Made by a program: the position numbers and the translations under genes. From Vicugna vicugna (lineage: Eukaryota): a stretch of DNA of 64,000 bases. Below are positions 1,000 to 63,493 of this stretch, one piece after another (the first letter of the stretch is position 1; every line of letters begins with the position of its first letter). The DNA lies in NCBI GenBank assembly GCA_013265495.1, contig MU057796.1, positions 434,001 to 498,000 of the forward strand, given 5' to 3'. Below the pieces are notes generated by a model that was not told the DNA's origin, made no database searches, and was given only the letters and a program-made list of their open reading frames with translations.

Positions 1000-2290
1000 T
1001 TGTCATTTAATTGAAAAATAATGCCACTGTAAAATGCACAACTTTTAAGTGTACAGTGTGATAAATATTTAGATATGTACACACTGTGTAACTATCACCT
1101 AGATAAGATATAGAACATTTTCAACATTTCAGAAATACCTCTCATGTCCCCTTTGAGTCAATATCCCTTCCCCCAAAAGGAACATAAAGGAACCTCTATT
1201 TTGACTTTTATTACCATAGACTATTTTTATCTGTCCTTGAGCACAAATGCTAACACTCCAGCCATCCAGTTCTGTACCTTGGTTGTTTTGTTTTGTTTTA
1301 GCCCATTAAGAGCTTCTTCATCAGAAAAACTGTGGTAATAAGAATGCCTACCTTACAGAGTTGTTGCACAAATTAAATACATTTGACATACACAAAGCAC
1401 CAAGAAAATGCCAGGCATTTTGTAGCCTCTATATTAGTTTTTTATTGCTGCATAACAATTACTACACACTTAGTGGCTTAAAGCGATACCCATGTATCAT
1501 CTCACAGGTATGTAGGTCAGAGCATCATCATGGCTTAGCTGGCTTCTGGGCCTGGGTCTCATAAGGCTGAAATCATGGTGTCAGCTGGGCTGCATCCTCA
1601 CCTGGAAGCTCACCAGGAAAGAATTTGCTTCTAACCTCTCTCAAGTTGTTGGCAGTTGTAGAATTTATGGTAGCTTATTTCTTCAAAGCCAGCGATGGGA
1701 AAGAGTCTCTCTGCTTCTTGGAATCTTTGTCCTCAGAGAATTCCTAGGTCCACTATTTTTTTAAATTCAGATATAATTCACATATCATAAAATCCATCCT
1801 TTTAAAGTGTAAAATCCAGTGGCTTTTAGTACATTCACAAAGTCGTACCACTATCACCATACATACTCCAGAATATTCTCATCACCCCCAAATAATCCTT
1901 TACTCATTAGCAATCCTGCCATCATTCCCCTTCTCCTGCTGCAGATCGATCTCTCTGTTTCTATGGATTTGCCTACACTAAACTTTCATGTGAATGGATT
2001 CATACAACATGTGGCTTTCTGCGTCTGGCTTCTTTCACTTAGCGTGTTTTCAGGATGCATTCATGTTTTCCTTTTACTGATATACCCTATTGATAGATAT
2101 GTAGTTTGCTTCCAGTCCTTGGCTATTACAGACAACACTTGTTATCCGATTACAAACAACAACGGATATCATTGAAGAAACATGTCAACATTTCAAATGT
2201 GAATGAATATATGTGTGCTACAAATTTCTAGAAGTAAAAGCGCTAGGTCAAAGGTTTACGTGTCAGTAATACTGACAGTTTTGCTGAGTT
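1000..2290 (-). mobile_element. Old L1ME/MB 3' fragments (~1000-1240 and ~1755-2290)
   Basis: TTTTAAGTGTACAGT, TCTGGCTTCTTTCACTTAGC motifs. Confidence 0.7.
1430..1745 (-). mobile_element. MaLR LTR (MLT1-like)
   Basis: ATTGCTGCATAACAATTACTACACACTTAGTGGCTTAAA, AAGGCTGAAATCATGGTGTCAGCTGGGCTGCA. Confidence 0.8.
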
Positions 2291-2404
2291 ATACCATTAT
2301 ATTCTGTCTTTAAAAGTACTGTTTTGAAGAAGGGAGGTGAAATGGTGTGGTGATTAAAAAGCACTGAGTTCAGGACTTTGTTTTGCCACAAACAGGAAAG
2401 GTCA

Positions 2405-2800
2405 GCCTAGAGTGGTTATTAAGAGCAAGGGCTTTGAAGGCATGGGTTACCTGGGTTAGAATCCTTGTTCTGCCACTTAAAATCTAAATGACATTAAGGA
2501 AGTTAAATAACCTCGCTGCCTCAGTTTTCTTTTCTGTAAGATATGGATATCATTAGGTCTTTTTGTGGGGATTAATGAGACAATACACCTAACACTTTTT
2601 TTTAAACTTTGTTTTTCTTTTTTAAAAAATCTTTTTTTTCTTGGAAGAAAGTAATTAATTAGTCATCTGTTTATTTTGATGGAGGTACTAGGGATTGAAC
2701 TCAGGACCTTCTGCATGCTAGGTGCATGCTCTGCCACTCCCCTGCAAACGTAACACTCAATACCAGTGCCTGGCACGTAGGACGTGCTCAATGAATGGTA
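2405..2800 (+). mobile_element. MIR SINE (split by the younger SINE)
   Basis: CTGGGTTAGAATCC..TCTGCCACTTA, GCCTCAGTTTTC..TGTAAGATATGG, AGTGCCTGGCACGTAG. Confidence 0.8.
2597..2750 (-). mobile_element. tRNA-derived SINE (camelid-type), inserted in a MIR
   Basis: GGAGGTACTAGGGATTGAACTCAGGACC (B-box, minus strand), T-rich tail, TSD TAACACT at 2590-2596 and 2751-2757. Confidence 0.85.
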
Positions 2801-3402
2801 ACCCTTCTTCATAGCTTGTTATGGGATCTCGGGCCACTGTCTTCAGATTTTTAAAATGAGGAGTTGAACTGGATTATTTTCATGTTTCCAAGTTTAAAAA
2901 GACAGTTGTGGTCTCTGGGTATTTAATTATATACTATCTCATTGTTCTCTAGTGTTCCTCACGTTGTTATTTTGTCTATTATGAAGGGTAGGGTATTTTC
3001 AAACTTTGGAAGCTCTTTCTCCGGAAGCTTGTGCATCTGTGGTAGCCCCTCCCATTGTACCCACCCCTCGCAGGGTTTGTCTAAGTATGCATATATAAAC
3101 AGATATGTGGATGCCCTCTGTATCTCACTATGTTAGTTTTCCTGAGATAGGTGGGAGTTAGCAAGTTTATGCCCCCTCTATCCCTCTCCTGTAGCTGACA
3201 CTTCACCTTTAGGTCTCTGCTTAGCCATTAGCATAGATCCTAGATTTATATATATTCTCCACTGAACGGTAAACATGAAAGATGTAACCATAGCCATTTG
3301 CTTCGGAATCATATCCTTAGCATATAGCAGTGCTTAGCCTCCAAGAAGCAACTGAAAAATATTTCTAATATTGAATAATAGTGTTATCTAGCTGAATACA
3401 AA

Positions 3403-3500
3403 TTTTTTAAAAGGTTTTTGTTTGTTTGTTTGTTTTATTTGTTTATTTTGGTAGAGAGGTATTTTTTATTTATTTTCAATGGAGATACTGGGGATTGAAT
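3403..3500 (-). mobile_element. 5'-truncated tRNA-derived SINE
   Basis: AATGGAGATACTGGGGATTGAA preceded by a T-rich tail. Confidence 0.7.
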
Positions 3501-4504
3501 GAACATTGTTCTCATCCCTTGCCTCCTTTATATCCTGACTTCTATGTTCTAATAACATACCAAAGAAGAAGAGTTGATGGGAATGTCTGTTTAGGGTACA
3601 GGCCGTAAGGGGGTGTATTATCTGTGGAAAATTTGAAAGCGATGATACACCAAAGCATGGACTGCTGTTTATTTTCTCTGTACTCTGGCAGTTATAAACG
3701 ATCTTAGTGATATAATACACCTCTCCACTGAGGCAGAAAGCTCTCATAGCCCCAGCTCCTTTGGAAGACTTGCTTTTCACCAATCCTCTCCATCAATATA
3801 ATGACTGCTAACTTAAGATAACCTAAAACAATAAGCTTGGGTGGGAAGGCACCCCTTAACTTGAGATTTGCCCCAGCCTTACCTCCACTTGACAAAGAAT
3901 TCTTAGTTGACCTTTGAGAAAAGTCTGTTCTTGCCTAAACTGATCTCTTTTTGTTAATACTTTGCTAAAGTCAGTGGAGAACATCCAGTGAATCATAATA
4001 ATCTGGTGCCTGTACAGCAACAGACTTGAGAAGAATTCGACTTGGGCTCCAAGCCATCAAAGGCAATAGTTGTACCAACTGTATTATCATAGGACACAAA
4101 GAAGCACCTGTTTTCCAACCTATGAGCCTGGTTTCCTTGTAGACAACCACCCGTCCTCTCAGTGAATACAAAGTGTGTGTGTATGTGTGTAATGATGGCA
4201 GTATTCCACTTCTGTTACTAATATTAAAAACTTTTAAAAATATGAAAGCTTGGCTAGTGTCCATACACACTGATTTCAGGATAATGTTAACCCCAGGGAA
4301 GGAAAGGAAACAGGCATGTTGGTAGATTCAACTGTGTCTGCAACATCTTATTTCTTAAAAAAAAAGTATTTGAAACAAACATCAGAAATATGTTAAGCTT
4401 TTAAAAATATTGATATTAAGTGCAGACTACCTACTATATTATGCAATTTCTGTATGTTTGCAGTGTTTTCATCTTCTAAAGAAATTTTAAATGTTAAAAA
4501 TATA

Positions 4505-5200
4505 TGTATGTACTAACTCAAAAAGGTATCTGGCCCCCAGCCATGTCCATAGCAGCATTATTTACAATAGTTAAGACATGGAAAGAACCCATGTCCATAG
4601 ATGGATGAATGAATGAGGAAGTTGTGGTGTGTGTATTTATATACAATGGAATATTGTTTGGCCATAAAATACAGGGAAACCCTACTGTTTGCAACAACAT
4701 GGATGGACCCTGAAGGCATTATGCTAGGTGAAATAAATCAGAGAAAGATGAATACTGTATAATCTTAAATATATGTAGAATCTAAACAAACCAAAAAAAT
4801 CCCCAGAACAAATCTTACAGAAAAAGAAATCAGACTTGTGGCTATCTGAGGCAGAGGGCAGAGAAACGGGGAACTGGGGAAAGGTGGCCAAAAGGTACAA
4901 ACTTCTAGTTATAAGTACTAGGGATGTAATGTACACCATGATGACTATAGTTGGCAATACTGTATGATATCTAGGAAAGTTGTTAAAAGAGTAAATCCTA
5001 AGAGTTTTCATCAAATAAATTTCCCTTTATCCTTTTCTTCTTCTTTTTCTTTTGATTGTATCTACATAAGAATATGGATGCTAGCTAAAATTACTGTGGT
5101 AATCATTTCACAAGATATGTAAATCAAGCCATCATGCAGTACACCTTAAACTTGTACAGTGAATGATGTGTGTCGATTATTTCTCAATAAAACTGGAAAG
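4505..5200 (+). mobile_element. L1 3' end
   Basis: GCAACAACATGGATGGACCCTGAAGGCATTATGCTAGGTGAAATAA...CTCAATAAAACTGG. Confidence 0.85.
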
Positions 5201-8200
5201 TATGTGTGTATATGTGTATACATGTATTTGGTGTATATATATATATGTGTGTGTGTGTGTATGTGTATACATATATAAATGTGCTTAGGTATGCATAAAA
5301 TACTTCCAAAAGATTACACAAAAACTGGGGAAGGAAATGGTATACTAAGGTATTAGGTGCTGAGGGAGATCGAACCTTTAAAAATTCTGTGCTACTTGTA
5401 TGAATTTACTAATCTAACTAAATAAATAATATACCAATAAACATGATTTTCTTTGAAAGTCAGGGCACTTTAAGTCATTATAAGGGATTTCTCACAAGGT
5501 TATCTTAGATCATTTCTGGGCATTATTTGTATTGCTTTATGTGTATTGTTAAATGCTACCATTTTGGAATTCTGTCTCTGGAAATCCTTGGGATAACAAT
5601 GTTTTAAATATCTAGTCCTCTTGCCCCCTTCATCAAGAATTTCATTCTTGAAATTTCTCAAGAATTAATCCCGCTAGAATTTGACAGCCTGGATAGTTGG
5701 TGAACATACTCTTTGCAAAAACAAACAAAAAACTCTTAAGAGATAATGAGCCACAGACTCTTGGATTTCTTTCCAGGTTAATGATAAATGTTACCTCCTC
5801 CTTTCATTATATCCACAGTTGGCAATTCAAATACGTTAATTTACCAGAAAACAATAATGTGCTTGGTTTCTTAAAAATTCTTTAAACCTTGGTTTTAGTC
5901 TTGACCTTCTAATCTAGTTCTGTTCACACACCACTTAAATAGAGATATATTTCTAGAGTTTCAGTTTTAGATATAGGAACAATAGGAAATGTCTTGATCC
6001 ACAAAAGGATGCTTTATTTGCTAAACTCCTTCCTCTGCACTTTGAAGCTGACCATTTCTTTCAGTTAGAGTCTACTTCCTCCCTTACAACTGTCCTCAAA
6101 CTCTTTGGTTCATGTTCAATGTATTCAGTAAGAGTACAGACTAGTTGAGAGAAGAAGCGTTCTTTTCTTCTTAGTTATTCCAAAGCAATTTAAAAGAAAA
6201 AAATCACAACTTTGTGTTAGGCACTGTGACAGGTGCCAGATGTAAAAAAGCACCTGTGACACTGGGCCTCTGAGAGGTTCACAGTGTTCTTCCTCTATAT
6301 CCTTTATTAAGTGTTCAATAAACTCTTATTTTAAAGACAAAGAGAGAGAAACCAGTCTTGTTCATCTACCCAGTCAAGGGAGAATCTTGGTAAGAAATAT
6401 AATCCTATAATCCCCTTAACAATGTCTGAACATACATTAATTTAATCAATCATATACTACATTTGAGGAAAAAATACTTCAATTAGGACCCCAGATTTCT
6501 CTCTTCTATATCTTGGGGAAATGACCAATTTGCATCAAGGTCCTCTGTCTACATCATGAGTAGAATTTCATTCTCCAACATTGTGCTTCTGTTTTTTGAA
6601 CAATCCAAACTGTAAGCAACATTTTCTTGATTTCTAACTGAAAAATTATTTCTGGTCTATCGTTGAATGGAAATAATGTGTCCAACTATTCCAACAACAC
6701 AGAAAACCTGCCATTTATGACCTTCTCTTGATTGGTGCACTGGATATAATACAAATTACTTTCCATACTCAGATCCTGAAATGCTTATCAACTATGGACA
6801 GGCCCAAGACAAACAGAAATTCCACTAGGATTTAACTGGTTCTTTCACAAGTTCTCCGAAGGGGAAATAGATAAAGCAAGAGACTGTCATTTTGCATCCA
6901 GCCCAGTGAAATTGTGTAACATAAATAAAGGGTGAATGGAACTGCCTTCACCCTTTTAAAACTTACTTCCTAAGCCAAAGGAGAAGCTATTTTTCAAAGG
7001 CACTACAGGAAGTGAAAGAAAAATGCAAAAATTGAAACTGGTCAGATTTTGTTTTTATGAAGTCAAATGAGAATTTTCAATTAGGTCACACCAGGTATAC
7101 AGTGGAGCTTCCAGGAGAAAGACGATCAAGGGTTGGGCAAGGTTTCTGGTGTTTGCACTTAGAATAAAAGAAAGAGGTTCATTAATAAAAATTTTAGGTA
7201 GGGCCAGTCTGAAATTCAGAATGGAACTGCATGAAACTCAGTGTGACTGTATTCATTGTGAGAGTTCTTATCCAGAAACAGAACATTCATTCTTTAGTTC
7301 AAAATTCCACTAGAAATAGGTCGTGTGAATTTTTGATCATTACAATAAGCATTTATAGTCACAGCATAAGTAGCTGAAGCAGATTTAAGGGCCTGCGTCA
7401 CAATTGGGGGTGAGTTCTGTGCTCCCTGTGTCAACATGGTGAGTCCGGAATCTTCTTTTCTGGGTTTGGGCAACATTCCAGCTTTCTACCTTTCTGTTTT
7501 GAGCAACAGTATAGTCCTCTGTTTTTCTTCATTCAGTAAGGGCCTCAGCTGGTAACCCATACTCCATTCTGTCTTAAATTTCTTTCTGTCTTTCACATAC
7601 TTGGTAGAATCTAGTGATTCTGGATATTTGCATCAATGGAGAATGGCTTTGGGGAGAAACACAAGTGCTAAGACGCCTTAAGGAACAGTGTTGGAAGAAG
7701 TCAAGCAATCACAAGGAGGAGACCCAGTGGAGAGAACAGGGGCAGGTGATGTGGCCTGTCTCTCCTGTGTAATCCCTCCAGCCCTGTCATGTGCTGCGGG
7801 TGGTTACGATGCTGTCATGGCACAGAGCAGAGAGTGCAAAAAAGATCTGAGTAATACTCTGCTACAGGAAGGGGTTTTGTGGTATACACAAGTCCTATTA
7901 AAATCGACTGCGTTGACAGCCTTGCATGTGGTTCTTGGGCTATTCAAAGAAAATAAAACCTCCTAAGTTATTTCCAGGCACATGGGTCTTTCTCTTTTGA
8001 ATTACTCAGAGATTACGAAGTACCTTGACAATGAAAACTGGGTCCTGATGACTCAACCTCCCTCAACCAAAGTTGTGAACATTGGAGGAAATAATACACA
8101 TTGTTAGGCACTATCTGACAGAGAATAGGCATGCAATTAATGTTTGTTTTTAAAAAGCTGCTGAGCAGTAAACTTGAAGTTGGCATTTTTTGTTCCTTAA

Positions 8201-54829: not shown

Positions 54830-55561
54830 ATAAGTGTAGAATAGTGTACAAATCTTGTGTGTGGCTTGACAAAATTTTACAAAATGTAACTGCTACCCAG
54901 AACAAGATATAGAACATTAGGAGCACCCCACAGTGTCTCTGTGTTCCCTCCCAGACATTCCAGCCCCCAAAGTAACCACTACTATGATTGCCATTATGAT
55001 AGATTTGTATTCTCTGTTCTTGAACTTGTTATAAATAAAATCATACAACAAAACTCTATTGTATCTTTTGTCATTCATGACAGTGAGATTTATTCATGTG
55101 GTTGTATGCACGTCATTACCTCCCGTGCCTGGTTTTGCAAGAAACTGTCAAACCCTCTTCCAAGATGGCTACGCCATTTTGCATTCTCATCAGCAATGAA
55201 AGAGAGTTCCCATTGTCCCACATCCTTGCCAGCGTTTGGGTTGTTGGTGTGTTGGATTTTGGCCATTCGAATAGGTGTGTTCTGGCATCTTGTTGTTTTA
55301 ATTTGAAATCCCCAATGACACATGATGTGGAGCATCTTTTTTGTATACTCATTGCCATCCGTATATTTTCTTTGGTGGTGTCTGTTCAGATCTTCGGCAC
55401 ATTTTAAAGTCAAGTTGTTCATTTTCTAATTGTTCACTTTTAAAAGTTCTTTGTATTTTTTTGGAAAACAATCTTTATCAGATGGGTCTTTTGTAGATAT
55501 TTTCTCTTAGTCCCTGGCTTAACTTCTTGCTTTCTTGACAGAGTCTTTTGCAGAGCACAAG
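54830..55561 (-). mobile_element. Old L1 fragments; left half of the host L1 split by the chimeric element
   Basis: AEDLNRH...IRMAKI...NAGKDVGQWELSFIADENAKW ORF2 remnant. Confidence 0.85.
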
Positions 55562-57332
55562 TTTTTTTGTTTTTTGTTTTTTTTTATTCAGTTATAGTCA
55601 GTTTACAATGTTGTGTCAATTTCTGGTGTGCAGCACAATTCTTCAGTTGTACATGAATATACATATATTCTTTTTCACTATAAGCTATTGAATGTTTCAC
55701 TGTGCTATACAGTATAAACTTGTTTATCTACTTTATATATACCAGTCAGTATCTGCAAATCTTGAACTCCCAGTTTATCCCTTCCCACCACCCTCCCCCC
55801 CAGCAACTGAGAGTCTGCATTCTATGTCTGAGTCTGTTTCTGTTTTATATATAAGTTCATTTGTCTTTTTTTTTTTCAAGATTCCACATATGAGTGATAT
55901 GATATGGTATTTTTCTTTCTCTTTTTGGCTTACTTCACTTAGAATGACATTCTCCAAGGGACATCCATGTAGCTGCAAATGACATTATGTTGTCATTTTA
56001 TGGCTGAGTAATATTCCACTGTATAAATATACCACATCTTCTTTATCCAGTCATCTGTCAATGGACATTTAGGTTGCTTCCAAGGCTATTGTAAATAGTG
56101 CTTCTATGAACATTGGGGTGTAGGTGTCTTTTTGAATTAGGGTTCCTTCTCGATATATGCCCAGGAATGGGATTTCTGAGTCATATGGTAAGTCTATTCC
56201 TAGTCTTTTGAGGAATCTCCATACTGTTTTCAACAAACATTGCACCAAACTGTATTCCCACCATCAGTGTAGCAGAGTTCCCTTTTCCCCACATCCTCTC
56301 CAGCATTTGTCATTTGTGGGCTTTTGAAGGATGGCCATTCCGACTGGTGTGAAGTGATAACCTCATTGCAGTTCTGATTTACATTTCTCTGATAGTTAGT
56401 GATATTGAGCATTGTTTCATGTGCCTATTGGTCATTCATATGTCTTCATTGGAGAACTGCTTGTTTAGGTCTTCTGCACATTTTTGGATTGGGATGTTTG
56501 TTTTTTTCTTATTAAATCATATGAGTTCTGTATATATATTGGAAATCAAGCCCTTGTCCGTTTCATCTTTTGCAAATATTTTTTCCTATTCTGTAAGTTG
56601 TCATTTTGTTTTGCTTATGGTTTCCTTTGCTATGCAGAAGTTTATAAGTATTACTAGGTCCCATTTGTTTATTTTTGCTTTTATTTGTATTGCTTGGGTA
56701 GACTGCCCTAGGAGAACATTGCTGAGATGTATGTGAGATAATGTTTTGCCTATGCTTTTGTGTAGGAGGTTTATTGTGTCTTGTCTTATGTTTAAGTCTT
56801 TAATCCATTTTGAGTTTATTTTTGTGTATGGTGTAAGGGAGTGTTCTAGTTTCATTGATTCACATGCTGCTGTCCAGTTTTCCTAACACCATTTGATGAA
56901 GAGATTGTCTTTATTGCATTGTATGTTGTTGCCTCCTTTGCTGAAAATTAATTCACCAAAAATTGTGGGTTCATTTCTGGGCTCTCTATTCTGTTCCATT
57001 GGTCCATATGTCTGTTTTTGTACCAATACTATGCTGTTTTTATTACTGTAGCTCTATAGTGTTGTCTAAAGTCTGGGAGGGTTATTCCTCCAGCCTCATT
57101 CTTCTTCTTCAGTAATGCTTTGGCATTCCATATAAATTTGTGATTCCATATAAATTTTTATGATTCCATATAAATTTTTTTTTATCATTTGTTCTAGTTC
57201 TATGTCCTGGGTAATTTGATAGGGATTGCATTAAATCTGTAGATTGCCTTGGGCAGTATGACTATTTTAACAATATTGATTCTTCCAATCAGGGAGCATG
57301 GTATGTCTTTCCATTTTTTTAAAGTCTTCTTT
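55562..57332 (-). mobile_element. Young L1 3' arm (ORF2 C-terminal part + 3'UTR + poly(A))
   Basis: ORF2 peptides such as [24 protein letters not shown]. Visibly colinear with the L1 copy at 15088-16900. Confidence 0.95.
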
Positions 57333-59114
57333 TTATATATATATATTTATGAAGAATTTAATTATCTATACACATAAATATTGAAAAGATTGTATTACAG
57401 TTGTTAAAGCTGCAGGTTTATTTATTTATATATTTTACATTCATGTTCATGAAAATACTGAAGCACCAGGGAACAAGGAGGAGACCTCATTCCCTGCACC
57501 GTGTGAGCGGAGAAGAACCTCTGCACAATCACCAGCACGGAGTCCCCCAAGGGGAGAGACAAAAACAGACCACTACTGTTACAAAGTCATTAGCAGAACC
57601 AGCAGATGGTACTCGAGGCGCCCCTCCCCCCGCCCACGCCGCCCCGCTTTCTGTGCTGTCGGCAACGGCTTTTTTATTGAGAGCTTCCAACTAGTGTTTA
57701 AAAGACAAACATGGCTTCAGCTACAACACATCCAACACATCAACAGACCATGAGCTCCATTCATATTAATCTGTAGAAATTCCACAGTCTAGTTAAAAAA
57801 ATGTAAACATTGGAAATTAATTGCAGGGAGACTTCTATACAGACTTTCTTGTCAAAATTACTTGTTCAAAATATGTCATTCTAAGGCTCTTTTCAGTGTG
57901 AGAAGTGAATCTGTGCAAACTGTTCTGCTGAACTTGTTTTAACTGGTCACTGAGTATCTATTTTTCTGGGGTAAGTTTTCCAAGCATTTGTTGAGACTCC
58001 TGTAATTGCTGCTGTAGGTGGGTGATTTCAGCAATTCTCAACTCTCTAGATTTGTTTGTGCTCTCAGTCTCGCCTCCGGGTCGTCAGTCGACATCTGATA
58101 TCCTGAAGCTTTCCTTCTAGTTGATGCTTTTTATCATTTAGAGCTTCTGATTCAAATTCCAAAGTCTTCTGTGCTTTTATCACAACTATGTCCTCTTGTT
58201 AACTTTGTTTCTTTGATTTAATAGTTCTTGTCTCCGGTTCCGTTCCCATTCAAGTTGTCGTTGCCCTTCAAGCTCCCGTTTTGCAGCCTCTCGTCTCTCG
58301 ATTTCTTTCCTCCGCTCCTCCTCCCTCTGCCGTTCTGGTTCCCGCTGCTCTTCCAGCTGCTTCTCCAGCTCCAGTTGTCTTTTGCGCTCTTGCTCCTGGC
58401 GCTCCCGCTCCTTCCGCTCCTGCTCCGCCCGCTCCAGCTGGGCCAGGCGCTCCTGCTCTTTGCGCTGCTGCTCCAAGAGCGCTTGTCTCCGCTTCTCCAG
58501 TTCCAGATGGCCGCGCTCGGAGTCCTCACGCTTCTTATCTTCGAACGTGACAGGTAGTTTCATTTCTAGTTGTTGCTGTTCGTCTTCTAAAACTGGTTCC
58601 TCCGGCAACCTCTGATCTACCGATGTTGAGCTTATGACGGATATCCCACTGCCAGACCGAACTCTTCTAAAGGAGGGTGGAATGTATTCTGGAGGCAGGA
58701 CCGGTGGCAGTGGTTGGCCAGACATGGCTACATCAATCAGGTGCATAGCCAGGATAAACTCTTCTGCTGTGAGTTTTCCATCTTGATCAATGTCAGAAAG
58801 ATTCCATGTTGAAGCCAGCTGAGCCTGTGGTAAACTTGACTGCATAAGTATAGTTCTTGCTTGGGGACCTGTTAAGTGTCCACTCATGGTTTTGTCATGA
58901 CTATTGAATAACTGTCTGTATTTCAGTCTGGAGGACTGGGGAACGGCCCACTCTGCGGCTGGAGGGACACTAGCCACGTCAAATGACTGTGCCTTCTGTA
59001 CTTCAGTGTTTAGCTGTGACCCTGGACCAGATCTACCAAAGGAAGAACTCTTTGGCAATGTGGCGGTAGGATGAGCAAACGCAGGCAGAGGCTGTATGAC
59101 CGGGGGTGCCCCAT
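57333..59114 (-). pseudogene. ITSN1: Processed, 5'-truncated and internally deleted intersectin-1 retrocopy
   Basis: Translation [15 protein letters not shown]...[72 protein letters not shown]... matches the ITSN1 EH2 domain and KLERQ coiled coil, with no introns. It continues through frameshifts to ...LKRALE at 57879, then UTR-like sequence with ATTAAA (57357-57362) and an A/(TA)n tail. Confidence 0.95.
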
Positions 59115-59127
59115 CTTTTGGTGGCAC
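58186..59127 (-). CDS. ITSN1: Residual open frame of the ITSN1 retrocopy (EH2 + KLERQ coiled coil), 313 codons; GTG start, first in-frame ATG at 58887 (233 aa); expression unknown
   Basis: ORF track. No stop or indel between 59112 and 58203. The frame ends after a 2-nt insertion at 58201-58202. Confidence 0.4.
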
Positions 59128-60250
59128 CTACCCATGCCCTGCTGCATGAACTCTAATCACTAGCTCCAAAGGCCCTCCGGTGGCACCCCTGGTCTGTGCT
59201 GCTCCAAGTGCTGGTCGACGGGTGACTCATGTCTCCTCCCAGTGCTGACTGGGCATCCCACTAGTGCATGTTAGGTGAGCAGGTTGCTCCCCCGCTCAGT
59301 GCAGCTCCCCTCTGCACATCAGGTCCGCGCTCTGTAGGCGGGCTCTGAGAAAATGGCAGCACCAGCCTTCGCCCTTGCTCTGTGCCAGAACCCCACTCCT
59401 TGTTCATTTGTCTTAGAGGCACAAATTCACAGAGGCACCAGGGCAAAGTGTTCCTATCTGCCTGGGGCTGTAAACAAATCTCAGTATCGCCTACGAGGTG
59501 GTGGAGCCCTTAGGTAGGGATTCAGGTTCCCACCCTGCCTCCACCTGGGAGCCGCACGCTGGAGGACACGGTGGCTGTGGCTGAGCCCCACCTCTCTTCT
59601 CCTGAGAATGCACCAGTAATGGTGCCCTCGGGATCTGCGGAGATAAAGTCTAAGGCAACCCTCCCCTCAGGGCACACCAGCAGTGTTGCTTTGCTTTTTT
59701 TTTTTTTTCATGTTTAATGGGACACTCAGGTTCTTCTGATCTGTATAGCCTCCCAGCAACGGCACACAGCACACTGCAGGTTGCCTTTGTACAGTCGACC
59801 CAAGTCCTCCACCCGGCTCGGGAAGCCTGGCCCGTCCCACACCTGCCGGCTCACGTCTAGGGTTGGGGGTCACGGGGACCTTCTGTGCCCATTTAATGTA
59901 GTTCTGTGGGTTAAGAGCTATTCCATACAGATCTGAGCCTCAGCGTATTCCCCCTGCATTCCGCTAACCTCTCCGTTGGAGAAGGGGAGACCCAGCGAAC
60001 AAGCGCTATTTCTCCTTTGCTGCTCCCTCCCCATGGGACCTGTCCTGCATTGTTTTCCTTTTTCTTCCTTCGTTTTTCCTTTTCTCCTACCCGATTAGTG
60101 GCGTATTTTGTCTTTGAAAAAGGGAATGTCCTGTCAAAGTTCAGCAGGTGTTCTGATTGGCTGAGTGGGCCCGTGGAGGTTAGTCTTGGTGTATTTGTGG
60201 GACAGGGTGAGCTGTGAGTGTCCTGCTGCTCCGCCATCTTGGCCCTTCCC
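59115..60250 (-). promoter_or_regulatory. L1 5'UTR / internal Pol II promoter with YY1 motif
   Basis: GC/CpG-richer ~1.1 kb segment starting exactly at the TSD. CAAGATGGCGG (YY1-type) at 60231-60241, in the position typical of L1 5' ends. Confidence 0.8.
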
Positions 60251-60251
60251 T

Positions 60252-60560
60252 GAGCACAAGCTTTTAAGTCCAGCTTATGTCTTTCACAGATTGTGCCTTT
60301 GGTGTTACATCTAAACATTCATCTCCTTACCCAAGATCATATAGGTTTTTTCTTATGTTTCATTCCAGAAGTTTCATAGTTTTGCATTTTACATTTACGT
60401 CTATGATCCATTTGGATTTAATATTCATGAAGGGTGTGAGGTCTGTGTCTACTTACATTTTTTTTTGCATACGAATGTCCATTTTTTTCCATTACTATTT
60501 GTTGAAAAGACTGTCTTTTCCCCATTATATTGCCTTTGCTCCTTTGTCAAAGATCTGGCT
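60252..60560 (-). mobile_element. Right half of the old host L1 ORF2
   Basis: Continues the ORF2 sequence interrupted at 55561 (GTTTTGCATTTTACATTTACGTCTATGATCCATTT). Confidence 0.85.
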
Positions 60561-60903
60561 GCTTTTAAGATTTCTTTCCTTCCTCACTTCCTTTCTTCCT
60601 TCTTTCCTGCCACTAGGCACAGAGTATTTTGTCGAAGTATGTAGGGGGTATGTAGCTGTCTACAATAGGATGTGCCTAGCTCTAGTTTTCTTTTTTCTGT
60701 CTCTTGTTTTGGATTTGTAGGCCTTCTTGATTGTGTGGCATAATAGCTTTCATTATTTTGAAAATTTTCAGTCAGGATCCCTTTTAGTATATCTTCCATT
60801 CCTTTCCTTATTCCTCTCTTTCTAGAACTCGATTTACATACATATTAGATTATTTTCTTTATCTCAACGTGACGTAGGTTTCTTTTCTTTTCTTTCATTT
60901 TCT

Positions 60904-60904
60904 T

Positions 60905-60951
<47 letters not shown>

Positions 60952-60955
60952 TTTT
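60904..60955. repeat. (TTTA)n microsatellite
   Basis: Direct reading. Confidence 0.95.
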
Positions 60956-63493
60956 TGCATTTCCTTCCATTCTGCCCTTTAGGCTAGGATTTACATTCTT
61001 TACACTATCTTCCAGTTCAGTAATCCTCTTTTCTGTGTCTAGTATGCTATTAAATCCACCACTAAATATGGTTCTTGATTTTAGTCATTGTATTTTTCAG
61101 TTCTATGGTCACTGTTAAGCTTTTTTTTTTTTAAAGACATCTCACATGTCTCTTGAAAATCCCCATCTTTTTTTATATATTCTTGAGTATATTAAACATA
61201 GTTGTATTTTAAATTGTATTTCTTATCACCTGTGGATTTTTTTCCTTTGTCTATCTTTTTCTTTCAGTTTTGTTTTTTTTTTTTTTAGTATTGTTTCTGT
61301 CTCCTGGCATAACTAACCATTTTTGATTGAATGTTATACAGGAGGTAAATCCAAGTGGGATACATCCTAGAATAAAAATGATTCTCATTTTAGACTCCCC
61401 AGTCACAGATTTGTATGTGAATAACAAAGCAGGTATACACAGACATAGTATTTACTTTAATGATATTTTTTCCAACTGGCCACCTTGTAGTAGACATTTA
61501 ACATAATGTGGACATAATTATAGTCAACTACTTGTCTGTAGGTAGTTAACTTTCATTACTCAGAGACTCACTCAGTTTTTGGCCAGCGGATACTGTTTTA
61601 AGAAAAGATTCTTTCGGTCTTACTGTTGGTCCAGTTTTATGATCTTGTTCAGTGTGGTGGCTTACATGCTAAGTAACTCAACACCAAATGTTCTCTCCTC
61701 AGAACCCAGCAGAATTCTCTATATAGGTCAAGAGTGTACCCATTCATTTCTCTTCCTCTTCATCTTTCTCTCCGTCTTCCATGTGAATGTACACACACAC
61801 ATATGTGTCAATCCAGATCTAACCAGGAAACAGAAACCACATGTATTATTTTAATAGAAAATTTAATATAAATTATTGTTAGCTAGGTACTGAAGAGTAC
61901 AAAAGGCAAATACTGACCACTTAGAGGTATCCCTGAGTAGCAGCTATTGGATCAACCAGCACTTCTAGGGCTAGGAAAGAAAAAGAGATGAGATTGGAAT
62001 TACTATAAACAGATAGCTTGGAGATGGAACCCCATGGAGCTGATACTGAGAAGGGAGCATCACCTGGCTGATGCTAGTGTCTCTGAGAGACAATGATTCT
62101 GCTTGTGAGAATGTTGTAAACCTGAATCCTCTAAACAATTGCTCCTCCACATACAAAATATTGATCCTAAATAGAAGAGTATTGCTAGAGTGATAATAAA
62201 AAGAATAGAAGCTGGAAAGCATAACAAGAAGAAATTATTTTCTTCTTCCTCTAGCCTTCCATGGTTCCTCTGACAGCCTCTAAGGAAGAGTCACTTGGAA
62301 AAAAAATGACAGTCTTATTTCTCCCACTTTGGAATGCACATTATTTCACATATAAACATATTCAAAATCAGCATGAATCTTAGAGTAGGTGGCATGTCAT
62401 GGTTCAGTGATGGTGATGTTTTTCTTTCTTAATGTCATATAAAATAATGATGCTTCTCATTATCAATAGTTTCTATAATTCTATGCAATATGATATTTTT
62501 GAAAGCATAAAATACTTTATATCACCAAACTTTCTGACCCTGGTAATGATTTTCTCTTTTAAGTTCTCACACACCATCTGTTAAATAGTTCTATAACTTT
62601 GCAAGAATCCAGTGTTAATCTTTCTGATTTATAGTTTCTGCATTTTATTTCTCTAATTAAAAAAAAATTTCCCACCTCCAGGATTATGGTAATCTTCTCA
62701 TTTTCTGTTGAATCCTCTCTCAAAGAACATGATGGCATCCTCTACATTTAGTCACTGAGAGGAGATTCTGCAGCCGCATATATGGGCCCCTTTAATGTCT
62801 TGGGGTTTGAGTCACATGGCCATAAAAAACTGGCTTAAGACTCTTTCACTTCAGGTTCAAATTCCTGGTTAATAGATTTTGTTACTCTCCCCAGTTTAAA
62901 CGGTTTTCTTCAAGTTTATGGAAACTTCTCATTATTCTTCAAGAGCATCAACTCTGACATCATGATAAGTAAATCCATGGTTTTCAGGACCTTTCCAAAG
63001 AAAGTTGAAGCTGAGTCTACAACCTTACTTTTACATTAAGGGTCACTACAAAAGTATTTTGTGTAAATCCTGTTGCCTATTTTTAAGCTTGTAACGTTTT
63101 GTGCGATTCTGGAGTTACACCTCTTCACTAAATTTTGAGTTTGATTTGAAAATGTTTTACATTTTCCCAAGAAATGTAAATATGTAGTTTATTGAAGAAG
63201 AGGTCAAACTATCCATTTCTATTTGTATTTGACATAACAATACACAAGAAAGGAAGAAACATCACCAGGGAGCACTATTGGAGAAATACAATGATTTTGC
63301 CAACCAAAACACAGGACTCTATATTATTTATTAGATTATAAATTAAGTTAGCCATTTCTGTTAACAAACTGTCTGCAAACTGAGAATTTTTGTCTGAAAA
63401 TCTCGTTCAATGAGAACATTTCGTTCTGTATAATTTCTATTTTCTAGGTTATTACAGGTGGCTTTAATCAAAATTGTACTGCCATATAATATA

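Follow-up and report, generated by a model that had tools for sequence, protein, structure and literature searches.

An ITSN1 retrocopy framed by the two ends of an L1 within one target-site duplication in the vicugna genome

Introduction

Insertions made by the L1 machinery are documented to delete part of their target DNA (PMC1920257, citing Gilbert 2002, Symer 2002 and Han 2005). Such L1 insertion-mediated deletions are recognised by an endonuclease (EN)-type 3' junction, a poly(A)-primed insert that is truncated at its 5' end, no target-site duplication (TSD) of the insert, and kilobases of missing target. Processed pseudogenes are intronless copies that keep the poly(A) site and tail of a parent gene lying elsewhere, and they decay neutrally. 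In template-switch chimeric retrogenes, tripartite forms of which have been documented (Gogvadze et al., 2007, PMC2104539), co-oriented parts of different RNAs share one TSD and include an L1 3' part with poly(A); U6/L1 and related chimeras belong here as well (PMC13174262). Spliced mRNA-L1 chimeras and 5' transductions join gene exons and L1 in one sense-oriented insertion, with the foreign RNA on the 5' side of the L1 and often ending at a splice donor (Law and Burns, 2026, PMC13174262). Here we describe a locus of the vicugna, Vicugna vicugna, that shares features with each of these systems. It occupies positions 55553-60265, on the minus strand, of a stretch of 64,000 nucleotides (GenBank assembly GCA_013265495.1, contig MU057796.1, positions 434,001 to 498,000), which is called the window below, and it consists of part of an ITSN1 (intersectin-1) cDNA between two pieces of L1, all within one TSD. 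The outcome is most likely a dead ITSN1 retrocopy framed by both ends of one L1.

The locus has the EN-type 3' junction, the poly(A)-primed and 5'-truncated insert, the lack of an insert TSD and the missing kilobases of an L1 insertion-mediated deletion. Here, however, the insert is a copy of a cellular mRNA, and the deleted target would be the interior of a single full-length L1, as judged from full-length relatives. Like a processed pseudogene, the ITSN1 part has lost ten introns, retains the parental poly(A) site and a remnant of the tail, lies away from its parent and shows neutral decay, but it has no TSD of its own and carries an internal deletion from mid-exon to untranslated region (UTR) that skips a genomic distance of ~47 kb. 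With template-switch chimeras it shares the co-oriented parts of different RNAs in one TSD and the L1 3' part with poly(A). In contrast to them, L1 stands on both sides, the inner junction lies at an EN-type DNA site, and by CpG fate and neutral transversions the parts look non-contemporaneous. Finally, gene exons and L1 are combined in one sense-oriented insertion here as in the spliced mRNA-L1 chimeras; in those, the exons stand 5' of a near full-length L1, whereas here the gene piece is internal and neither L1/ITSN1 junction is a splice site. A gene piece between the two ends of one L1 is not described in the portions of PMC13174262 considered.

Structure of the locus

The searched assembly comprises 2.03 Gb in 12,405 contigs, and the window is part of its contig C841. 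The sequence across 55300-60500 is free of N. Read along the minus strand, the unit runs from an older-L1 flank through a TSD copy, the L1 5' arm, the ITSN1 coding cDNA, the end of the ITSN1 3'UTR, a tail remnant, the L1 3' arm, poly(A) and the second TSD copy into the older-L1 flank again, with the following features (ORF, open reading frame; RT, reverse transcriptase):

60252-60265, minus strand: 5' copy of the outer TSD, AAAAGCTTGTGCTC; target TT/AAAA (bottom strand TTTT/AA) within an older L1
59115-60251 (start at 60251 or 60250), minus strand: L1 5' arm, with the true L1 5' terminus and ~1.14 kb of 5'UTR; end of homology common to 8 of 8 relatives
57879-59114, minus strand: coding part of the processed ITSN1 cDNA, 11 exon pieces with EH2 domain and coiled coil, from the match to the parent gene
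57348-57878, minus strand: end of the ITSN1 3'UTR, last ~529 nt (parent C6350:192543-192015)
57333-57347, minus strand: A/T-rich remnant of the ITSN1 poly(A) tail, AATATATATATATAA, 15 nt, without counterpart in the parent locus
55586-57332, minus strand: L1 3' arm, 1.75 kb, with ORF2 downstream of the RT domain and a 3'UTR with AATAAA; starts AAAGAAGAC, which is preceded by AATT in relatives
55567-55585, minus strand: L1 poly(A) tail with two C interruptions; border with the TSD ambiguous
55553-55566, minus strand: 3' copy of the outer TSD, AAAAACTTGTGCTC

The two TSD copies, AAAAGCTTGTGCTC (60265-60252) and AAAAACTTGTGCTC (55566-55553), match at 13 of 14 positions, with nine bases exact, and by our own arithmetic an exact 9-bp match at both ends has a chance of ~4e-6 per placement. 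The outer target reads ACTT/AAAAGC, which is TTTT/AA on the bottom strand. In the coordinates of a full-length L1 relative (L016), the sequences flanking the TSD are nearly contiguous (left ~6127, right ~6132; 65-70% identity), indicating that the unit is a single insertion within an ancient L1. The host of the insertion (55150-55552 and 60266-60980) is a piece of ORF2 from an ancient L1 that runs in the same direction and is 65-75% identical to younger L1 copies. As far as its sequence can be read, the locus is a three-layer nest of an old L1, a second L1 and the ITSN1 retrocopy, and we regard the tripartite L1/ITSN1/L1 structure within one TSD as real. The outer element shows the 5' terminus, the TTTT/AA-type TSD and the poly(A) after AATAAA of a full-length L1 insertion, and lacks ORF1 and ORF2 with its EN and RT.

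For the 5' arm, scoring covered the best 40 of 2,921 candidates, and eight of the 43 non-self matches were retrieved for alignment. The nearest copies among those scored are 74-80% identical (best non-self about 79%). All eight aligned relatives diverge from each other and from the element at one point, directly upstream of GGGCCAAGATGGCGGAG, and this common loss of homology indicates that the arm starts at a real L1 5' end. We take the GGGCCAAGATGGCGGAG motif at the terminus to be a YY1 site. The exact sequence CCAAGATGGC was found in five of the eight relatives. At its other end the arm is an incomplete 5'UTR: it breaks off with ...CACCAAAAG, where the aligned relatives read ...CACAAAACAAAAAGG, ~80-110 nt ahead of their ORF1 ATG. 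The ATG at the L1/ITSN1 junction is ITSN1 sequence, the parent reading ...ggctaATGGGGCACC. The observed/expected (o/e) CpG ratio of the 5'UTR arm is 0.38.

For the 3' arm, the best 40 of 27,447 candidates were scored, and 22 copies were aligned (20 of the 43 non-self matches, plus L016 and L017), to which the arm is 84.5-89.1% identical. A probe limited to the 3'UTR found nothing above 85% among the best 40 of 8,652 candidates. The longest sense ORF in the arm has 93 codons' worth of amino acids (93 aa). In L016 coordinates, the two arms leave a gap from ~1270 (end of the 5' arm) to 5461 (start of the 3' arm), and ~4.2 kb of L1 interior is missing, as gauged from full-length relatives. When 12 open frames of L016 were scanned for domains, four gave matches. 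In L016, the interval missing from the locus holds the Pfam domains RVT_1 (67.4 bits) and Exo_endo_phos (25.5 and 32.2 bits), and a match to Tnp_22_trimer, the ORF1 trimerisation domain, stays below threshold (20.4 bits, cut-off 22.2). Both arms appear to fit one L1, and each has L016 among its nearest copies. In the ORF2 part of the 3' arm (minus strand, 57125-57195) there are also three tandem units of ~20 nt resembling AAATTTATATGGAATCA, a small private duplication.

The ITSN1 retrocopy

The ITSN1 cDNA (59114-57348) aligns to a single gene on a separate contig (G000:C6350:192015-264918), where it matches 11 exon pieces and the final 529 nt of a 3'UTR. Ten introns were precisely removed, all of them canonical GT..AG in the parent. 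The translation matches the Pfam EH domain (E=2.6e-19) and the intersectin-1 structure 2kgr in PDB (E=1.6e-63), and is 92-95% identical to intersectin-1 of many mammals. Over the whole ITSN1 part, 64 of 1,759 sites (3.6%) differ from the parent, corresponding to 96.4% identity with both lineages summed. The cDNA is 5'-truncated: its 5' end lies mid-exon in the parent, an AG acceptor is absent at the L1/ITSN1 junction, and the two sequences overlap there by 0-1 nt. At 57879/57878 the sequence passes from mid-exon to a point within the 3'UTR, 529 nt before its end, a step over ~47 kb of the gene at which both sides share the 3 nt GAA (57881-57879) and splice signals are absent. Neither 59115/59114 nor 57879/57878 is a splice site, both lying mid-exon in the parent, and no long ORF was found upstream of the matched 3'UTR segment in the parent.

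The match to the parent stops at the cleavage point after ATTAAA (...CTTCATA). Beyond this point the window has AATATATATATATAA, a short, degenerate, A/T-rich tail of 15 nt that is not in the parent, and then directly the L1 sequence AAAGAAGAC. No repeat flanks the ITSN1 part; a missing TSD is expected if target DNA was deleted. As a processed pseudogene, the copy has lost its introns and has the parental poly(A) site and tail, and it lacks a TSD of its own.

An earlier note on this DNA, made from the letters alone, had described L1, ITSN1 and L1 within a single TSD, and all main parts lie at or within a few bases of where it placed them. This includes the spliced ITSN1 cDNA, whose parent is now located, the junction near 57878, and the absence of ORF1 and the EN/RT part of ORF2, domains that L016 carries in the interval corresponding to the ~4.2-kb gap. 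Two of its descriptions need narrowing. What it called a complete L1 5' end with ~1.1 kb of 5'UTR does have the true terminus (8 of 8 relatives), but the 5'UTR stops ~80-110 nt short of the ORF1 ATG; the "own tail" of ITSN1 is present after the ATTAAA cleavage point, but just as a remnant of 15 nt.

Probable insertion into a resident L1 with deletion

A cleavage-point end, an A/T-rich tail, mid-exon 5' truncation and the lack of an own TSD together characterise retrocopies whose insertion deleted target DNA. The ITSN1 retrocopy was probably inserted into a resident full-length L1, of which ~4.2 kb was lost. The earlier note had listed this origin, ITSN1 insertion accompanied by a multi-kb loss from a resident L1, among others, and it is favoured here by the EN-type site at the inner junction and by the relative age of the parts.

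At the inner 3' junction, all three aligned relatives read ...GGAAATT/AAAGAAGAC, and the ITSN1 tail is joined exactly at TT/AAAG. On the bottom strand this is 5'-CTTT/AATT-3', an EN-type site, so the 3' junction (AATT/AAAG in 3 of 3 relatives) is of the kind found in L1 insertion-mediated deletions. Priming at a nick in L1 DNA predicts the TT, whereas an A-run without the TT would suffice for an RT passing from L1 RNA onto a poly(A) tail; the junction thus favours insertion of ITSN1 into L1 DNA that was already in place. In L016, TT precedes 22 of the 527 positions followed by AAA (4.2%).

The L1 arms also look several-fold older than the ITSN1 insert, both by CpG loss and by transversions that are neutral to CpG decay and GC-biased gene conversion. 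The 5' arm keeps 12 of 37 inferred ancestral CpGs, while the ITSN1 part keeps 38 of 39 in the coding sequence (CDS) and 8 of 12 in the UTR (Fisher p=1.6e-8). A<->T and G<->C changes are insensitive to CpG decay and GC-biased conversion. They number 23 in 1,624 sites among singletons of the 3' arm, as against 7 in 1,759 sites between ITSN1 and its parent, both lineages included (Fisher p=0.0016), and the same class gives 19-25 in old L1 copies and 3-7 in young ones. Where the other copies show at least 80% agreement, the 3' arm departs from them at 132 of 1,624 sites. Its maximum-likelihood terminal branch is 0.11, which groups it with old copies at 0.089-0.145. Younger L1 copies with terminal branches of 0.047-0.052 are present in the genome, suggesting that an active L1 of about the retrocopy's age was available.

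The following course of events would account for the locus; we infer both its order and the RT jump from the sequence. In a first step, a full-length L1 of ~7.1 kb from an older subfamily would have been inserted by target-primed reverse transcription into a still older L1, yielding the outer 14-bp TSD and the 3' poly(A). Later, the machinery of a younger L1 subfamily would have nicked this resident L1 at the bottom-strand site 5'-CTTT/AATT-3', in ORF2 just past the RT domain, and priming on the poly(A) tail of an ITSN1 mRNA would have led to copying of the last 529 nt of its 3'UTR. At the 3-nt GAA overlap, the RT would then have jumped into the coiled-coil exons and continued for 1.24 kb, as far as the mid-exon point. 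The end of the cDNA would have been joined to a break ~4.2 kb upstream in the L1 5'UTR, with loss of ORF1, EN and RT and without formation of an inner TSD. Given the missing inner TSD and the documented precedent, a deletion coupled to the insertion is moderately favoured over a separate, later deletion.

Several observations weigh against this order of events. By the strictest count, singletons of all classes number 61 of 1,624 sites (3.8%) in the 3' arm and 64 of 1,764 in ITSN1 (p=0.86), private indel events are 8 and 9, respectively, and AT>GC changes per AT site are similar (~3.9% and ~4.4%). The L1 terminal branch includes differences that the source carried before insertion, and closer L1 relatives may exist beyond the best 40 scored and the 22 or 8 aligned. 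The CpG contrast may reflect local hypomethylation or biased conversion in the CDS, rather than youth. In addition, the TT ahead of the break could have occurred by chance (4.2%).

Other origins

The similar singleton totals, indel counts and AT>GC rates, which show no age gap between the parts, would also suit a unit formed in one step, an origin that we consider unlikely. After reverse-transcribing 1.75 kb of its own L1 transcript, the RT would have moved onto the poly(A) end of an ITSN1 mRNA, made a single jump inside that template, and gone back to the L1 RNA it had started on, close to where the 5'UTR ends; from there it would have continued to the 5' end, leaving one TSD. A single TSD around everything, with all parts co-oriented and a 3' poly(A), is what is found in template-switch chimeras, and the internal ITSN1 junction, mid-exon to mid-UTR with a 3-nt overlap and no splice site, could reflect a jump of the RT. 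Template-switch chimeras of two or three parts have been documented (PMC2104539, PMC13174262), the tripartite ones of Gogvadze et al. (2007) being a precedent for such a process. However, three switches would be needed, one of them back to the same RNA ~4.2 kb upstream, and the break at the EN-type site TT/AAAG would be a 4.2% coincidence given the A-run. CpG loss and neutral transversions, moreover, put the L1 arms several-fold older than the cargo. Among the best copies scored, the nearest to the arms remain at the 84.5-89.1% (3') and 74-80% (5') given above, in contrast to the 96.4% identity between ITSN1 and its parent. Insertion of the retrocopy into a resident L1 therefore remains the favoured origin.

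An L1-ITSN1-L1 chimera formed elsewhere, transcribed from its L1 5'UTR promoter and retrotransposed in trans is very unlikely. A single TSD does enclose a unit that opens with the real 5' end of an L1 and closes with AATAAA and poly(A), so a spanning transcript would have had the needed cis features, and remobilisation would also permit L1 arms older than the cargo. However, no other copy was found with the probes used, although gaps in the assembly could hide a source. A 251-nt probe across 59114 had 114 candidates, and of the best 40, which were scored, none but the window itself runs through the junction. A 1,815-nt ITSN1 probe detected no second cDNA copy in the whole assembly; it matched the window, 12 parent pieces on C6350, one paralogue-like exon with 66% identity on C8998, and 30 nt of L1. 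The absence of a second copy of the cDNA or of the L1/ITSN1 junctions in the 2.03-Gb assembly argues against a mobile family, and the several copies with different TSDs that mark a non-autonomous family were not found for the cDNA and the junctions covered by the probes.

The earlier note had read the unit as a gene-carrying non-autonomous retroelement with a ready-made promoter, possibly one of a mobile family, and had proposed a search for extra copies with probes across the junctions. No extra copies appeared among the matches scored, and that reading is further weakened by the pseudogene cargo, the 12 of 37 CpGs kept in the 5'UTR arm, the older arms and the tail at an EN-type site. RNA runs hold 0.14-0.22 of the sampled words of the stretch. 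The parental ITSN1 mRNA could account for this share, which hence is no evidence of expression. The unit is an ordinary genome scar and not a mobile element.

Two other loci, L013 and L019, had suggested a family of L1 shells composed of a 5'UTR and a 3' end, and this candidate was rejected: L019 is a nested L1 insertion, and L013 is a single, internally deleted L1. L013 (G000:C4557:9661300-9668600, locus positions ~63-1720) has the same 5'UTR type and is an L1 without foreign insert, in which the 5'UTR and ~20-40 nt past the ORF1 start are joined to the last ~430 nt of L1 (L016 coordinates 1293 to 6770).

That the assembly joined unrelated pieces is highly improbable. There is no N in 55300-60500, and the junctions show a poly(A) site, an EN-type site, a TSD and continuous flanks. 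Of the words sampled from the 5-kb stretch, 0.58-0.66 occur in each of fourteen DNA runs (7 studies, 3 organism labels), one of them possibly the assembly's own source; this share counts words and does not resolve single junctions. Least credible is a retrocopy of a chimeric transcript of the parent locus, in which an intronic L1 promoter was spliced to ITSN1 exons and transcription read through into a downstream L1 fragment: retrotransposing spliced gene/L1 fusion transcripts are documented (PMC13174262), but this origin is contradicted by the junction sequences (mid-exon in the parent and without AG acceptor at L1/ITSN1, with a tail remnant between UTR and L1) and by the lack of L1 arms near the parent exons, no match being found to the 5' arm in 19 kb upstream of the first retained exon or to the 3' arm in 5.5 kb downstream of the parent poly(A) site.

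Decay and substitution pattern of the retrocopy

To judge from its differences from the parent, the ITSN1 retrocopy is a decaying pseudogene. The coding part differs from the spliced parent at 38 of 1,234 sites and by four indels, three of which shift the frame; in the UTR, 26 of 525 sites differ and the alignment opens 5 gaps. A stop-to-stop frame of 313 codons (58186-59127) is followed by frameshifts. In the first 303 codons there are 13 amino-acid differences; comparison with nine outgroup intersectin-1 proteins assigns 12 of these changes to the retrocopy, including L>P and F>S, and one to the parent. At residue 163 of the aligned piece, the parent has Ser, the retrocopy and six of the nine outgroups have Thr, and the remaining outgroups have Ala (two) or Val (one), consistent with the retrocopy preserving the older state. 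No function appears to be indicated for the unit.

The substitutions in the CDS follow an unusual pattern. From parent to retrocopy, 28 of the 38 differences are AT>GC and 7 are GC>AT, and 10 of the 12 polarised retrocopy changes are AT>GC. With 38 of 39 parental CpGs kept, the CpG o/e ratio of the CDS is 0.74-0.92, and the effect is strongest at 58200-58700. Elsewhere, the ratio of AT>GC to GC>AT is 11:11 in the UTR, and GC>AT changes dominate in the L1 arms (40:65 and 19:41). Local germline hypomethylation or GC-biased gene conversion, in either case confined to ~1 kb, would fit the pattern of the CDS.

Implications

The structure is a further example of an event type already known, with no evidence of mobility or activity. 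If the unit had nevertheless been formed in one step, it would be a record of an RT that switched templates twice and came back to the L1 RNA it had left. A promoter-bearing L1 shell with host cargo would then have been built at once, which would be a possible route to gene-carrying, non-autonomous derivatives of long interspersed elements (LINEs). The locus calls for caution with such layouts. An L1 promoter, a gene and an L1 tail in one TSD resemble a new gene-carrying retroelement, yet a common process, in which a retrocopy deletes the middle of a resident L1, can make the same layout. Three checks separate these readings: whether the inner junction lies at an EN-type site, how old the parts are relative to each other, and how many copies exist.

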